Positions 8,730 to 14,700 of a stretch of 64,000 nucleotides of DNA are shown here, in pieces. Positions within the stretch are counted from its first letter, which is position 1. Each line of letters opens with the position of its first letter. The position numbers were made by a program. This DNA comes from Candidatus Omnitrophota bacterium (lineage in GTDB: Bacteria > Omnitrophota > Gorgyraeia > Gygaellales > Profunditerraquicolaceae): NCBI GenBank assembly GCA_028712505.1, contig JAQTQC010000001.1, positions 77,635-141,634 of the forward strand, written 5' to 3'.

Positions 8730-11700
8730 TAATGTCTTGGACAAAAAAAGATCTTTTGGGGCTTGAATATTTGACTCCGGAGGAAATAGGGCTGATTCTT
8801 GAAACCGCGGAATCTTTTAAAGAGGTTTCTACCCGGGAGATCAAGAAGGTTCCCGCCTTACGCGGCAAGACAGCGGTAAATCTTTTTTATGAACCGTCTA
8901 CACGTACCCGGGTATCTTTTGAGGTAGCCGCTAAAAGACTCTCTGCCGACGTAATCAATATTTCCACGGAAACCTCAAGCGTCCGAAAGGGCGAAACCTT
9001 AATCGATACCGGCAAGAATATCCAGGCGCTCAAGGCAGATATAATTATTATACGGCATAATTGTTCCGGGGCGGCAAATATGCTGGCGAGCGCATTAGAT
9101 ATCAGTGTAGTCAACGCCGGGGACGGATGGCATGAGCATCCTACCCAAGCGTTACTGGATATTTTCACGTTAAAAGAAAAGTTGGGAAAAATCAAAGGTT
9201 TAAATGTGGCTATTGTGGGAGATATATCGCATTCCCGGGTTGCCCGCTCAAATATCTGGGGATTGACCAGGCTTGGAGCTAATGTTACTGTATGCGCTCC
9301 GGAAATGCTGCTTCCGGTTGGGATAGAGAAGACCGGGGTAAAAACATCAAGCAATATAGATGAAGTCTTGAAAGATGCTGACGCAGTAAATGTCTTAAGG
9401 ATGCAATTTGAGAGGGATGAAGGGGCGGCATTCCCCGAGCAGCTGGATTACTATAAGAAATTTGGCATTACCGAAGAAAGATTGGCTAGGGCTAAAAAAG
9501 GCATTATCGTTATGCATCCTGGGCCGATTAACCGGGGAATTGAAATATCCAGCGAGGTGGCGGATGGGAAGAATTCGGTGATCTTAGAGCAGGTAACTAA
9601 TGGCATTGCCGTGCGCATGGCAGTTTTATTCTTAGTGGCCCAGGCGAGGGAAGCAAAAGCATGAGCATATTAATCAAAGGCGGAAGGGTAATTGACCCGG
9701 CGAATAAAATTGACGCTGTTTTAGATATTTTAATTGAGGATGATAAGATTGTCAGGGTCGCCAATGGTATTAAAACGCAGACGGATAGCATAATCGATGC
9801 CACTGGCAAAATTGTTGGCCCGGGGATTGTTGATATGCATGTGCATTTACGCCAGCCCGGCAGAGAGGATAAGGAAACAGTTGCTACTGCTACAGCCGCT
9901 GCTGCTAAGGGTGGGGTAACTACTGCTTTGGCCATGCCTAATACCAACCCAGCCATGGATTGTGCGGAAAACATTAAACTCTTAAAGGAGATAATTAGTA
10001 AGGATGCTAAGATAAACGTATTTATCTGTGGCGCTATCACCAAGGGGCGTTTGGGTCAAGAATTAAACCCTGTAGATATTTTAAAAGAAAACGGAGCCTG
10101 TGCTTTAAGCGATGATGGTTGTTCTGTTGATAATAGCGAGCTTATGCTTGAGGCATTTAAAAAAGCAAGGCAGTCTGGTATTTTGACTATCTGTCACTCT
10201 GAGGATAAGAAAATATCCGGTAAAGGGGTAATCAACTTGGGTTTTAATTCTACGCGGCTGGGCTTGCGGGGTATCTCTAATGAGTCAGAATACAAAAGAG
10301 TGGCGCGTGATATCGAATTGGCTCAAAAGGCCGGTTCGCCTGTGCATATTGCGCATGTCAGCTGCCGGCAATCAGTAGAAATAATTTCCCAGGCCAAGAA
10401 GAAAGGTCTGCAGGTAACTTGTGAAACCGCCCCGCATTATTTTTCATTAACAGAAGATGCGCTTTTGGGATATGATACAAATATGAAGATGAACCCTCCT
10501 TTGAGGAGCCCTGAAGACCTGATGGCAATCAAGCAAGGATTAAAGAGCGGTACAATTGATGTTATCGCTTCAGACCATGCTCCGCATACGGATAATGAAA
10601 AAGATATTGAATTTGAACGCGCAGAATTTGGGGTAGTTGGCTTGGAGACCGAATTAGCCGTGAGTATAACCGAATTGATTGATACGGAATTTATGGATTG
10701 GAGCAGCCTGTTTGAAAAACTTAGCTTCAACCCAGCCCGAATTCTAGGGTTAGATAAGGGGTCTTTAGGCCAAGGCAGGCCGGCTGATATAGTAATTATT
10801 TCTGCCGAAAAAGCATGGCTGGTCAGGAAAAATGAATTGATCTCTAAATCTAAAAATTCTGCTTTTCTCGGTCGTACCTTAAAAGGGACGGTAGATTATA
10901 CAATTTGCAACGGAAAGATAGTATATAAAAATGGAATTTATCGCTGATTTTCATATCCATTCCAAATATTCTCGGGCAACCAGCCGCGATATGGATGTTA
11001 AGCATTTGGCAGAATGGGCAAAATTAAAAGGCGTTACCCTTATGGGTACCGGTGATTTTACGCATCATCTCTGGCTGGAAGAATTAAAGCATACATTAGA
11101 AGATTGCGGGAATGGTTTGTATAAACACGCAGGTATATATTTTATGCTTACTGCCGAGGTAAGCAGTATTTATTCCAAGAATGGACGGACTTACCGTATC
11201 CATAATTTAATTTTCAGCCCTTCATTTAAAAGCGTCGATAAGATCAATGAGAGGCTGGGAAGAATAGGTAATCTGGCTAGCGACGGTCGTCCGATATTAG
11301 GTTTGGATGCCGCAGAACTGGCGCGCATTGTTTTTGATATTGATGAAAACTGTATGATTGTCCCCGGGCATATTTGGACTCCCTGGTTTTCGGTATTTGG
11401 CTCTATGTCGGGTTTTGATAAGATCGAGGATTGTTTTGAAGCTCAAACGGAAAAGATATTTGCGCTGGAGACCGGGCTTTCCAGCGATCCGACAATGAAT
11501 TGGCGTCTGAGCGCTTTAGACAGGTTTACTCTAATTTCCAATAGTGATTCACATTCTCCCTCCAGGATAGGACGTGAGGCAAATGTTTTTAATTGTGAGT
11601 TGGATTATAAAACCATAAGAGAAGTTTTAAAAACAAAAGATAGGAAAAGATTTCTTTATACCATAGAATTTTTCCCTGAAGAAGGGAAGTATCATTTTGA

Positions 11701-14700
11701 CGGTCACAGGCTTTGCGGCATTCGCTGGTCTCCCCAAGAAACCAAGGCGCATAACGGCAAATGCCCCAAATGCGGTAAGAATGTAACTGTGGGAGTAGTT
11801 AACCGGGTTGAGAAGTTAGCCGATCGCGCTGAAGGTTTTGTTCCGGATAATGCCATACCTTTTAAAAATCTTGTTTCGTTGGATCAGATAATTGCGGAAA
11901 CAAAAGGTGTTGCCAAGACCAGTGTAGGAGTAGAAAAAGATTACCGAAGCTACTTAGCAAACTTTGGTACAGAATTTGATATATTAATGCGAGCTTCCAG
12001 AGAAGACCTATCTAAGAAACTACCGGTTAGAGTTGTTGAAGGCATTATGAGGATGCGTACCGGAAGAATAAATATAAAACCGGGTTACGATGGAGAATAC
12101 GGGGTAATTTCAATATTTGACAAAGACGAGCCTGAAGCAAAACATGAACAGCAGCTTGATCTGTTTTAAGAAATGATGCGCCTGTGGCTCAACGGATAGA
12201 GCACTAGCCTCCGAAGCTGGTGGTGCAGGTTCAATTCCTGCCAGGCGCAATAAAACAACGGCAGGAAGTGTATTTATAGTTCACTCCGCTCGAAACTCGG
12301 CAGGTTTCGCTAAATAAAAACTGTAGAGGCATTGATTATTGCCAAGTTTAATAAGCGGTGGGTAAAGAGATCAATTGGTGTAAGTGGTGTAAAAAACCCA
12401 TATAATACCTAAAAAAGTGATTAAAGTGGTTTATATTCTGGTTCAAGCTGGTTCACGTGGAGCGATTAAGGCATAGAAGAGAGGTTAAGCCGTGAAGGCG
12501 ATATTAGTTTTAGAAGATGGAAAAAGTTTTAATGCGAATAGTGATTTAAACTCAGAATGTTTCGGAGAAGTAATTTTAAACACCGCTGTAGTGGGTTATC
12601 AGGAGATGATTACAGATCCGGCTAATGCCGGAAAAATCCTTGTCCTTACTTACCCTTTAATTGGTAATTACGGAACAGCGCCAAAATTTAATGAATCGCT
12701 CAAGGTTTGGGTAAGCGGACTGGTGGTTAAGGAGACAAGCCGGATTTATTCTAATTTTCAGGCAAAGTCAGGTCTGAGTGATTTTCTGAAAGAAAAGAAC
12801 GCTTTTGCAATTCGTGGCTTGGATACCCGTACCTTGGCTGTACATCTAAGGGAAAAAGGCCCGCTGTGGGGAATAATTTCTACCAAGACACTTGACGTTA
12901 AGAAATTAGTTGAAAAGATAAACCAGATTAAGAAGCAGCCTGAGCAATCTCTTTTGCCGGAAATATCGGTTCCCAAACAGAAGATTTTAGGCAAGGGAGA
13001 GAAGCTGGCGGTTTTAGACATAGGTGTAACTAATGGGCTATTAAAACAATTAGAAACATTGGGCTATTCTTTAAATATTTTTCCTTATAATGCCAGCGCA
13101 AGGCAAATTTTATCAGTTAATCCTAAAGGGATAGTTATTTCAAGCGGCCCGGAAAATGATCCGGGGTTGAAACAGGTAGCGTTGAACATAAAACCGCTTA
13201 TCGGTAAATTACCAATGATCGGGATTGCTACAGGCTGTCAGGTTTTAGCATCGGCTTTAGGAGTAGGATTAATCCGGTTAAAATTAGGGCATCGAGGGGT
13301 AAATTACCCGTTAGCCAGAACAGGTTCATTTAAAGGGGAGATTACTGTTCAGAATCATGGGTGTGTTATGGATTATGATGCATTATGTAAAGTTAAAGGG
13401 TTAAAGGTTACTGCTTATAATTTAAATGACCATACTCCCGAGGAGATAGAGAGTAAAAGTTTAAAGTTAATCGGTGTGCAGTATAATCCGGTATCTGCTG
13501 GTTTTGACCAAGTAAATCCTATATTGGTTAAATTTAAAAAACTATTAGGGGATAAATGTGCCAAGGCGTAAAGACATAAAAAAGGTTTTAATAATCGGTT
13601 CCGGTCCGATAGTTATCGGCCAGGCCTGTGAATTTGATTATTCAGGATCTCAGGCTTGTAAGGCCCTGAGAGAAGAAGGTTATCGCACCGTTTTAGTAAA
13701 TTCTAACCCGGCAACGATTATGACCGATCCTGGAATGGCTGATGTTACATATATTGAGCCTCTTAACATAGAGGTGCTTACAAAAATAATTGCTAAAGAG
13801 AAACCGGATGCCATATTGCCTACGCTGGGAGGTCAAACGGGATTGAACCTGGCATTCTTTTTAATGAAAGAGGGCGTGCTTAAGAAATACGGAGTGGAGT
13901 CGATAGGTTCTTCTGTGGGTGCTATTGCTTGCGCCGAAGATAGGGATCTTTTTAAGAAGGCGATGCAGGAAATCGGAATAGATATTCCCAAGAGCGGGAT
14001 TGCTACAACTGTTAAGGAAGGAATGAAAATTGGTTTAGATATCGGGTTTCCTTTAATCTTGCGTCCGGCCTATTGCCTGGGTGGTAGCGGAGGGGCTATA
14101 GCATATAATAAAGAAGAACTGGAAGTCTTCCTGGCCAAGGGTATTGAGGCCAGTCCAGTGCATCAGATTTTAGTAGAACAGTCTGTTTTGGGCTGGAAGG
14201 AGATTGAATTTGAAGTAATGCGGGATTGTGCGGACAACGTGATTATGGTTACTTCTATGGAAAATGTAGATCCTATGGGTGTACATACCGGAGATAGTAT
14301 TGTTGTTGCTCCTGCCCAAACCTTGACTCCCGAGGAGTATGCTAATTTTGTTAACCTTTGCAGAAAAATTATCCGTAAGATTGGGATATCCGGCGGAGGC
14401 GCCAATATTCAGTTTGGTCAGAATCCGGATAACGGCAAGATCGTGATTATCGAGGTAAACCCCAGGCTTTCCCGCTCTTCGGCTTTAGCATCAAAGGCTA
14501 CCGGGATACCTATTGCCAGGATTGCTACAAAATTAGCTATAGGCTTGACATTGCCTGAAGTGATGAATCAGGTTACCGGAAAAACCACTTCATTTTTTGA
14601 GCCGACAGTGGATTATTGCGTATTCAAAATCTGCAGGTTCACTTTTGAAAAATTCCCCTATGCTGAAAGAGTGCTGAATACTTCGATGAAGGCCGTAGGA

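Follow-up and report, generated by a model that had tools for sequence, protein, structure and literature searches.

The 64,000-nucleotide stretch of a Candidatus Omnitrophota genome analyzed here (the window; contig JAQTQC010000001.1) very probably carries a functional endonuclease Q (EndoQ) of a bacterial clade, which is fixed in the pyrimidine biosynthesis (pyr) operon of Omnitrophota and is most likely under the control of a promoter and probable attenuator located upstream of pyrR. This reading is based on homology, fold, residue conservation, synteny, and regulatory motifs. The conserved placement of endoQ in the pyr operon of nearly all sampled Omnitrophota is new; the gene itself is ordinary, and its name in the public annotation is already correct.

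The endoQ ORF starts with ATG (N-terminus MEFIADFHIHSKYS), and no ORF of at least 80 amino acids occurs on the opposite strand within it. As the initial annotation had proposed, the gene is flanked by pyr genes, overlaps the pyrC stop codon by 17 nt, and is followed by tRNA-Arg(CCG) before carA, with mutM starting 4.68 kb past the EndoQ stop (~4.7 kb had been proposed). The tRNA begins 7 nt past this stop, and its cloverleaf and CCG anticodon were identified by two independent methods. The gene order is pyrR-pyrB-pyrC-endoQ-tRNA-Arg(CCG)-carA-carB-mutM-methyltransferase-pyrK-pyrD-pyrF. The spacer between the tRNA and carA is 241 nt, much of its length being due to the relic of a SLOG cluster-4 gene, which is intact at the same position in related genomes. 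CPSase_L domains are present in related half-size carB genes, and the features of MutM are all found in the mutM product: the catalytic PELPEVE N-terminus, the H2TH domain, and the C-terminal zinc finger. A single strand carries all real genes of the window.

Features of the endoQ locus, with positions given in the numbering of the window.
Feature	Position	Strand	Remarks
Sigma-70-like promoter	7940..7967	+	TTGACA, 16-nt spacer, TG-extended TATATT; 11/12 consensus matches
Probable PyrR-binding leader/attenuator	7982..8087	+	Rfam RF00515, 49.6 bits, E 1.9e-4; gathering score 54
pyrR	8193..8732	+	Phosphoribosyltransferase domain, 179 aa
pyrB (aspartate carbamoyltransferase)	8732..9664	+	
pyrC (dihydroorotase)	9661..10947	+	Amidohydro_1/DHOase domain
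endoQ	10931..12169	+	412 aa; predicted PHP, Zn-binding, and C-terminal helical domains, and flexible tail
Zinc-ribbon ligands His259, Cys262, Cys278, Cys281	11705..11773	+	
C-terminal QLDLF (residues 408-412)	12152..12166	+	Beta-sliding-clamp-binding consensus QL[SD]LF
tRNA-Arg(CCG)	12177..12250	+	ARAGORN and Rfam tRNA RF00005, 71.4 bits; CCA not encoded
SLOG cluster-4 gene	12382..12472	+	Decayed relic of N-terminal coding region
carA	12492..13571	+	
carB	13558..16836	+	1092 aa; named by position after carA and tblastn matches
mutM/fpg	16846..17664	+	Fapy_DNA_glyco, H2TH, and zf-FPG domains; N-terminus MPELPEVE
PEMT/ICMT-like membrane methyltransferase	17668..18378	+	Guest gene
pyrK	18353..19144	+	
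pyrD	19138..20073	+	
pyrF (OMP decarboxylase)	20061..20762	+	Final pyr gene of the run

The promoter upstream of pyrR is the best in the 13.7-kb region scanned. An intrinsic terminator overlaps the probable PyrR motif downstream of this promoter and upstream of pyrR; its hairpin (8054–8078) has nine pairs, six of them G-C, is followed by T8, and constitutes the top-ranked terminator-like site. The RF00515 motif also occurs 5' of pyrR in five of eight related loci (41.7–49.3 bits). No comparable promoter-like or terminator-like site was found between endoQ and carA by these scans, which detect consensus matches only, and the tRNA-carA spacer may still hold an internal promoter. Along with the overlap with pyrC, the short gap to the tRNA, and the conserved gene order, the lack of a terminator-like site between endoQ and carA makes it likely that endoQ, the tRNA, and mutM are co-transcribed with the pyr genes. 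Transcription of endoQ would most likely start at the single strong promoter and pass through the probable PyrR attenuator. With the operon under putative PyrR control, levels of EndoQ, MutM, and the tRNA would follow de novo pyrimidine synthesis up and down.

The arrangement is conserved across the phylum. In all 65 informative Omnitrophota species genomes, pyrC lies directly upstream of endoQ (pyrR-pyrB-pyrC-endoQ). At 57 of 64 related loci tRNA-Arg(CCG) comes after endoQ, and at 32 of 39 the operon also contains mutM farther downstream. The tight junction is not universal, as the distance from pyrC to endoQ is at most 60 nt in 37 of 72 loci but exceeds 300 nt in 25 of 72. The GC content of endoQ is that of its neighbors. 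Its product has a phylum-wide median identity of 77%, as compared to 64% for pyrC, 66% for pyrD, and 64% for mutM; this stand-alone EndoQ matches core metabolic enzymes in conservation and has a fixed place in the pyr operon, beside a tRNA gene and upstream of mutM. No endoQ adjoining pyr genes was found in the seven non-Omnitrophota contexts examined, and among the contexts examined the linkage is confined to the one phylum.

The operon also houses guest genes that vary between lineages, encoding a PEMT-like methyltransferase, SLOG4, flavodoxin, UPF0047, TPR/GDSL, or Mut7-C proteins. Given these variable guests and the non-pyr contexts of EndoQ elsewhere, membership in the operon need not mean functional coupling. 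The position of a true EndoQ among pyr genes has an even chance of being a frozen accident with no adaptive tie to pyrimidine metabolism, in which endoQ and tRNA-Arg were inserted ancestrally at a junction that tolerated them and were then passed down vertically, the genomes being small and strongly co-directional. The turnover of unrelated genes at the same junctions, of which the SLOG4 relic is an instance in the window, is consistent with such an origin, as are the absence of the linkage from all non-Omnitrophota contexts examined, the single-strand layout of the window, and the reduced size of Omnitrophota genomes (0.86–3.2 Mb, as given in PMC10066038). However, endoQ remains in the pyr cluster where its neighbors have been rearranged: it is located between carA and carB at one locus (L072), and at two others (L070 and L076) is followed directly by pyrK-pyrD without the tRNA. 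Even the closest relative (95% EndoQ identity) no longer shows synteny upstream of pyrR, and this, like the retention of mutM as a second base-damage repair gene, argues against a frozen accident.

It is possible, although we consider it rather improbable, that EndoQ and MutM are placed under the PyrR attenuator to tune repair to the supply of pyrimidine nucleotides, or else to de novo synthesis and replication, with tRNA-Arg(CCG) as a split point for RNase P/Z. In that case oxidized purines would fall to MutM and uracil, hypoxanthine, and AP sites to EndoQ, and processing of the tRNA by RNase P/Z would cut the long transcript into two halves. Pyrimidine supply and repair may be functionally linked, as the initial annotation had suggested, and any adaptive reason for the coupling is speculative. 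If true, such tuning would couple DNA-uracil repair to the status of the nucleotide pool at the level of regulation and throughout the phylum, an arrangement for which we found no description in the literature. Should the co-regulation be real, it would provide a natural system for studying the adjustment of uracil and base-damage repair to pyrimidine supply. Should it not be, the locus is a clean case of long-lived "guest" genes in the biosynthetic operon of a reduced genome.

By homology and fold, the ORF encodes a genuine, full-length EndoQ, in agreement with the family assignment of the initial annotation. It aligns end to end with Pyrococcus furiosus (Pfu) EndoQ (5zb8; residues 5–397 versus 5–384 of the chain, E 9.2e-55, 32% sequence identity), and the match to TIGR00375 covers positions 2–374 of the 374 in the profile (E 8e-55). 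With 186.7 bits, this match falls short of the 326.6 bits set as the curated cut-off for the NCBIfam model, which is of the hypoth_equivalog type; the shortfall reflects the divergence of the bacterial clade. Pfam-A yielded no significant match for the ORF (PHP_C sub-threshold, E 0.19). A database protein with 99% identity bears the name "endonuclease Q family protein" and has a precomputed match to PF27218 (MJ0043_C), the EndoQ-specific C-terminal domain. The AF2 model (pLDDT 93.4) superposes on 5zb8 with TM-scores of 0.87/0.90 over 412 columns, whereas other PHP proteins reach at most 0.35 and match the PHP barrel only. The predicted protein consists of a PHP nuclease domain (~1–248), a Zn-binding domain (~249–313; aligned with Pfu 239–303 and modeled at pLDDT >90), and a C-terminal helical DNA-binding domain (~314–400; alignment to residue 397, model helices within 317–376), followed by a tail.

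The metal ligands H8, H10, E76, H91, H147, and D206 (along with H208) are invariant in the window and 80 related loci, and the ligand set is identical to that of Pfu EndoQ (His8, His10, Glu76, His84, His139, and Asp193, along with His195). The base pocket is composed of T150, E180, T181, G182, L183, and N204, with W152 as the wedge; the Pfu counterparts are T142, E167, L168, G169, L170, and N191, with Trp144. The sole pocket change is thus L168 to Thr (T181), and in Pfu EndoQ L168 makes a main-chain contact with the base. Across the 80 related loci, pocket residues acting through side chains vary little or not at all (W152 is His in two, N204 is Cys in one). By homology, the Omnitrophota enzyme is predicted to be a nicking endonuclease acting on abasic sites and on deaminated bases (uracil, hypoxanthine, or xanthine) that have been flipped out. 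The damaged base would be gripped in a rigid pocket formed by T150, E180, G182, L183, and N204, with W152 serving as the wedge, and the two-metal PHP site would hydrolyze the phosphodiester linkage 5' to that lesion.

The zinc site had been taken for a C4 ribbon, and this did not hold. Only three of its ligands are cysteines (C262, C278, and C281); the fourth is H259, which occupies the position of C249 in the C4 site of Pfu EndoQ (Cys249, Cys252, Cys268, and Cys271). This histidine is invariant in 81 of 81 bacterial sequences and is present in 149 of 151 representatives, the other two having Cys. As His is a competent zinc ligand, HC3 appears to be a clade variant rather than a lost site. At the other end of the protein, QLDLF lies on a low-confidence (disordered) tail of the AF2 model, and QL[SDN]LF is found at the C-terminal extremity of ~70 of 77 complete sequences. 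PMC4858679 notes that bacterial EndoQ homologs carry a C-terminal beta-clamp-binding consensus. QLDLF may bind the clamp and so tether EndoQ to it, much as the archaeal PIP box engages PCNA.

To our knowledge, EndoQ has been studied almost exclusively in hyperthermophilic archaea, along with a couple of Bacillus enzymes, and the literature we know of still calls it scarce in bacteria. The initial annotation likewise regarded bacterial homologs as rare, which the searches contradict: at least 8000 homolog clusters were found at E≤1e-10, and homologs were found in at least 570 GTDB species. Clustering at 50% identity gave 3732, 2431, and 1023 clusters at E≤1e-3, 1e-10, and 1e-30, respectively. 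At this level of clustering, the nearest relatives from outside Omnitrophota are mostly EndoQ-UvrD helicase fusions of ~1100 amino acids, some with inteins. What emerges is a large bacterial EndoQ clade with a His-Cys3 zinc site, whose non-Omnitrophota members are mostly such fusions.

The helicase fusions fit with a role in DNA repair. PHP-fold RNases exist, and the enzyme could instead process RNA (tRNA or mRNA), which we regard as very improbable. Such a role would accord with the frequent presence of tRNA-Arg(CCG) 3' of endoQ, its occurrence ~1.5 kb upstream of endoQ at two loci of non-pyr context (L074 and L079), a Mut7-C (RNase-domain) gene between pyrC and endoQ in ~20 loci, and a distant structural match of the PHP domain to RNase AM. 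However, the TM-score to RNase AM is 0.28–0.33 over the PHP barrel alone, as opposed to 0.87 to EndoQ over three domains, and relatives retain both the wedge Trp and the pocket for the deaminated base, the closest of them being fused to a UvrD-type DNA helicase, while the tail bears a DNA sliding-clamp motif. A generic PHP phosphoesterase of the histidinol-phosphatase or polymerase-PHP type, which the Pfam-A result and the sub-cut-off TIGR00375 score might suggest and which would have overturned the family assignment by the initial annotation's own test, is refuted by the alignment and structural comparison, as EndoQ is the best match through the Zn-binding and helical domains, other PHP proteins match in the barrel only, and PF27218 marks the C-terminal domain.

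The operon resembles the PyrR-attenuated operon of the Bacillus type (pyrR-pyrP-pyrB-pyrC-carA-carB-pyrK-pyrD-pyrF-pyrE) in having pyrR first, a leader with a probable PyrR motif and an intrinsic terminator, and the same order of biosynthetic genes. It differs in lacking pyrP and pyrE, in having only one detected attenuator, and in its guests (endoQ, tRNA-Arg, mutM, and the PEMT-like methyltransferase), which are interleaved with the biosynthetic genes.

Among EndoQ enzymes, those of Bacillus pumilus and B. subtilis are bacterial and stand-alone, like that of Omnitrophota, and are the characterized bacterial examples (Shiraishi et al. 2017, as cited in PMC5961232 and PMC6202378). The EndoQ-UvrD/PcrA fusions (~1000–1200 amino acids, from metagenomes) have 47–57% identity over the entire EndoQ module. 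They resemble the Omnitrophota protein in their HC3 zinc site and in having Thr where Pfu EndoQ has L168, and unlike it carry a C-terminal superfamily-1 helicase. No helicase gene was found in the annotated part of the window (37–27823), in which a 773-amino acid ORF (3556–5877) has no Pfam match. P. furiosus EndoQ (PF1551; PDB 5ZB8 and 7K30–7K33) shares the three-domain architecture, metal ligands, base pocket, and wedge Trp, and its C-terminal tail too is disordered and bears a clamp-binding peptide. The Omnitrophota enzyme differs from it by small insertions in the PHP domain (offset of +7 to +13 residues), by His in place of Cys as the first zinc ligand, by Thr in place of L168 in the pocket, and by a bacterial beta-clamp type motif (QLDLF) in place of the archaeal PIP box (QRTLLQYI). 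Its host is presumably a mesophile, from groundwater and lake metagenomes, whereas P. furiosus is a hyperthermophile.

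The gene for the endonuclease Q (EndoQ) candidate, endoQ, lies within a PyrR-type pyrimidine (pyr) operon, between pyrC and a tRNA-Arg(CCG) gene. The tRNA gene starts 7 nt past the EndoQ stop codon, does not encode CCA, and is separated from carA by a spacer of 241 nt. The initial annotation had described the 17-nt overlap of pyrC with endoQ, the tRNA-Arg ahead of carA, and mutM downstream, and all of its coordinates proved correct.

Features of the pyr operon containing endoQ (window positions)
Feature	Position	Strand	Description
pyrR	8193-8732	+	upstream of endoQ
pyrB	8732-9664	+	upstream of endoQ
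pyrC (dihydroorotase)	9661-10947	+	upstream ORF; stop overlaps endoQ by 17 nt
endoQ	10931-12169	+	ORF, 412 aa, protein start MEFIADFHIHSKYS
tRNA-Arg(CCG)	12177-12250	+	ARAGORN; Rfam 71.4 bits
carA	12492-13571	+	
carB	13558-16836	+	
mutM/fpg	16846-17664	+	N-terminus MPELPEVE, C-terminal zinc finger
PEMT/ICMT-like membrane methyltransferase	17668-18378	+	between mutM and pyrK
pyrK, pyrD, pyrF	end of run at 20762	+	

The methyltransferase gene, whose position is kept in many related loci, overlaps the start of pyrK by 26 nt and has no obvious tie to pyrimidine synthesis or repair. Directly after pyrF is a V/A-type ATPase cluster (20788–27823; subunits E, A, B, D, I, proteolipid, and a DUF2764 gene), followed by tRNA-Val(TAC) and tRNA-Asp(GTC) (27891–28119); this tRNA pair also occurs downstream of pyrF in four related loci (L009, L016, L029, and L032). 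A 773-amino acid ORF (3556–5877) has no Pfam-A match at E≤1e-5, with radical-SAM and GDSL-lipase genes upstream of it. Every window ORF of at least 150 amino acids, shadows of larger genes excluded, is on the + strand, forming an unusually long co-directional array (1–64000).

The closest proteins and loci among the matches listed belong to metagenome-assembled genomes of Candidatus Omnitrophota; some TPA records carry the label “Planctomycetales”. The window genes were compared with 80 species-representative loci. All 65 Omnitrophota-type loci whose upstream sequence is long enough have pyrC directly 5' of endoQ on the same strand, with EndoQ identity ranging from 57% to 95% across these loci. 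The gap between the pyrC stop and the endoQ start is at most 60 nt in 37 of 72 loci (12 of them overlaps) and greater than 300 nt in 25. About 20 of the large-gap loci have, within the gap, a 150-amino acid Mut7-C RNase-domain (PIN-like) gene, which was sought in the window and not found. This insert is present in the more divergent Omnitrophota (L014, 9517–9972; L027, 9461–9913; L060, 4218–4715; L077, 5128–5583). Downstream, 57 of 64 loci have tRNA-Arg(CCG) no more than 1.5 kb past endoQ, 20 of them no more than 20 nt past it, and mutM is found in 32 of the 39 loci having at least 8 kb of flank. Some deep branches are rearranged, and endoQ is still among pyr genes: between carA and carB in one locus (L072), and directly before pyrK-pyrD, without the tRNA, in two others (L070 and L076). 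Many Omnitrophota have a half-size gene resembling the CPSase large chain (~520 amino acids; pre-ATP-grasp, ATP-grasp, and MGS) between tRNA-Arg and mutM, in place of carA and full-length carB (L005, 11376–12938; L006, 11782–13359; L027, 11468–13126; among others).

Upstream of pyrR, not even the closest relative retains synteny. In most relatives, tRNA-Glu(TTC) is found ~2.7 kb ahead of pyrR (e.g., 4394–4470 in L001), where the window has a U32 peptidase gene and a 262-amino acid ORF without a Pfam match (6028–7886); this places the synteny break immediately upstream of the pyr leader. Within the operon, endoQ is a long-established gene subject to strong purifying selection, not a recent transfer. 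The median identity of EndoQ is 77%, as compared with 64% for pyrC, 66% for pyrD, 64% for mutM, and 54% for pyrK, and only pyrB and carB (81%) are more conserved. The GC content of endoQ is 0.412 and that of the window 0.413.

The best sigma-70-like site between 7800 and 21500 (7940–7967; TTGACA, 16-nt spacer, TG-extended TATATT) and the top-ranked terminator-like hairpin (8054–8078, followed by T8) are both located ahead of pyrR. A probable PyrR-binding site identified with Rfam coincides with this leader (7982–8087; E 1.9e-4), its score of 49.6 bits being below the gathering score of 54. A regular expression for the PyrR loop proved overly stringent, with matches in 3 of 63 loci, and was replaced by an Rfam E-value scan of eight other, short loci, five of which had the motif upstream of pyrR (41.7–49.3 bits). 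The interval from endoQ to carA, including the 241-nt spacer, contained neither a second PyrR site nor a comparable promoter or terminator. In a DNA alignment, the 3' part of this spacer (12382–12472) matches the N-terminal coding part of a SLOG cluster-4 (LDcluster4) gene, which many related genomes keep intact after tRNA-Arg; SLOG4 proteins had no match in the window by tblastn. Because the region has in-frame stops in the window and in L001, it is a decayed SLOG4 pseudogene, a relic that accounts for much of the spacer length without recourse to regulation. The most economical reading is that one long PyrR-attenuated transcript would carry endoQ, the tRNA, and mutM, from which tRNA-Arg(CCG) would be cut by RNase P and RNase Z.

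Outside the phylum, pyr genes were found near endoQ in none of the five GTDB loci with other phylum labels (L073, L074, and L078–L080), nor in two further stand-alone EndoQ lineages, in which the gene orders are CCA-adding enzyme, HIT, EndoQ, LpxK (L081–L083) and YibE_F, EndoQ, response regulator (L084–L086). Two of the loci with non-Omnitrophota labels, L074 (8426–11212) and L079 (8320–11248), have tRNA-Arg(CCG) ~1.5 kb upstream of endoQ. The order in L074 is tRNA-Arg, SLOG4, MgtC, endoQ; MgtC adjoins endoQ in L079 as well, and is the sole gene identified there. Since the tRNA occurs near endoQ in these two loci without pyr genes, the tRNA-endoQ neighborhood may be older than the residence of endoQ in the pyr operon.

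We consider it highly probable that EndoQ is a lesion-specific endonuclease. The enzyme is predicted to be tethered to the β clamp and to nick DNA 5' of dU, dI, dX, or AP sites, which would start an excision repair route, and it would be expressed together with the other genes of the pyr operon. An adaptive, PyrR-linked repair regulon seems doubtful to us, although endoQ has been kept in the cluster through rearrangements and a second base-damage repair gene is present in the same operon. The placement of endoQ may instead be a “frozen accident”, a reading for and against which we weigh the chances equally. Favoring the accident over adaptive coupling are the changing cast of unrelated guest genes in the pyr operon, the limitation of the endoQ-pyr linkage to one phylum, the compact co-directional genome, with all real genes of the 64 kb on one strand, and the small size of Omnitrophota genomes (0.86–3.2 Mb; PMC10066038).

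Bacterial EndoQ homologs had been called rare in the initial annotation, a view from the literature of 2015–2018 that is contradicted by current cluster and species counts. A word-indexed search yielded at least 8000 homolog clusters at E≤1e-10, and an exhaustive search of representatives yielded 3732 clusters of 50% identity at E≤1e-3, 2431 at 1e-10, and 1023 at 1e-30. With one genome per GTDB species, at least 570 EndoQ relatives were confirmed among the 600 pattern matches listed. Among the 150 nearest cluster representatives (P0121–P0270), 123 are at least 900 amino acids in length and only four are shorter than 500. Seven long representatives were scanned: five have EndoQ joined at its C-terminal side to a UvrD/PcrA-type helicase, and the other two (P0121 and P0164) have LAGLIDADG inteins inside the EndoQ module. 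These fusions and inteins support a DNA-repair role for the clade. A role in anti-phage defense was also considered and rejected: the PADLOC library gave the EndoQ module no match, and GajB matches to the EndoQ-UvrD fusion protein reflect generic UvrD-helicase similarity, not defense.

The defining residues of Pyrococcus furiosus (Pfu) EndoQ were taken from the crystal-structure paper (PMC5961232) and checked in the window and 80 related genomic loci. The metal ligands (Pfu H8, H10, E76, H84, H139, and D193, plus H195; H8, H10, E76, H91, H147, D206, and H208 in the window) are invariant. The pocket and wedge residues (Pfu T142, W144, E167, G169, L170, and N191; T150, W152, E180, G182, L183, and N204 in the window) are invariant or nearly so, with W152 replaced by His in two sequences and N204 by Cys in one. 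QLDLF forms the extreme C terminus, on a disordered tail, and QLxLF is the C-terminal end of ~70 of 77 complete relatives, most commonly as QLSLF; QL[SD]LF is the bacterial β-clamp-binding consensus. A role in RNA processing is very unlikely, because the base pocket is conserved, relatives are fused to helicases, and the tail carries a clamp motif.

The protein is a new, uncharacterized member of the known EndoQ family, which public annotation already names correctly. The best sequence and structure matches are to EndoQ, and not to histidinol phosphatase or polymerase PHP domains lacking the zinc and helical domains, which the initial annotation had named as the outcome that would refute its assignment. 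Residues 5–397 align with residues 5–384 of Pfu EndoQ (PDB 5ZB8; E 9.2e-55, phmmer against PDB sequences), and the only remaining significant matches are chains of EndoQ-DNA complexes (7K30–7K33). The whole NCBIfam model TIGR00375 is matched (E 8e-55) at 186.7 bits, its curated cut-off being higher (326.6 bits). A Pfam-A scan matched no model; PF27218 (MJ0043_C) is assigned to a 99%-identical database protein with the NCBI name “endonuclease Q family protein”. An AlphaFold model from a shallow alignment (33 sequences, 78–96% identical; pLDDT 51.5) was discarded in favor of one from a more diverse 42-sequence alignment including 50%-cluster representatives (pLDDT 93.4, pTM 0.90). By Foldseek, the latter matched 5ZB8 with TM 0.87/0.90 over 412 columns and 7K30 with TM 0.84, whereas other PHP proteins matched the barrel alone (TM ≤0.35). 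Together with the phmmer alignment, this excludes a generic PHP phosphoesterase.

A literature search found no paper tying EndoQ to Omnitrophota or pyr operons. Three points appear to be absent from the searchable literature: the phylum-wide occurrence of endoQ, tRNA-Arg(CCG), and mutM within a PyrR-type pyr operon, the His-Cys3 zinc site found throughout the EndoQ clade, and the predominance of EndoQ-UvrD fusions among relatives. As comparative-genomic observations they are useful, but they would not surprise a specialist.

The window protein differs from Pfu EndoQ at L168, which makes a main-chain contact to the base and is Thr in the window, and at the zinc site (C249/C252/C268/C271), which corresponds to H259/C262/C278/C281. 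The zinc ribbon had been annotated as C4; it has only three cysteines, His259 being the first predicted ligand. As all 81 sequences have His at this position, as do 149 of 151 cluster representatives, the site is, as judged from sequence, a clade-wide His-Cys3 variant rather than C4. In archaea, EndoQ uses a PIP box at its C terminus to bind PCNA, and the authors of that study already remarked on the clamp-binding consensus in bacterial EndoQ homologs (PMC4858679).
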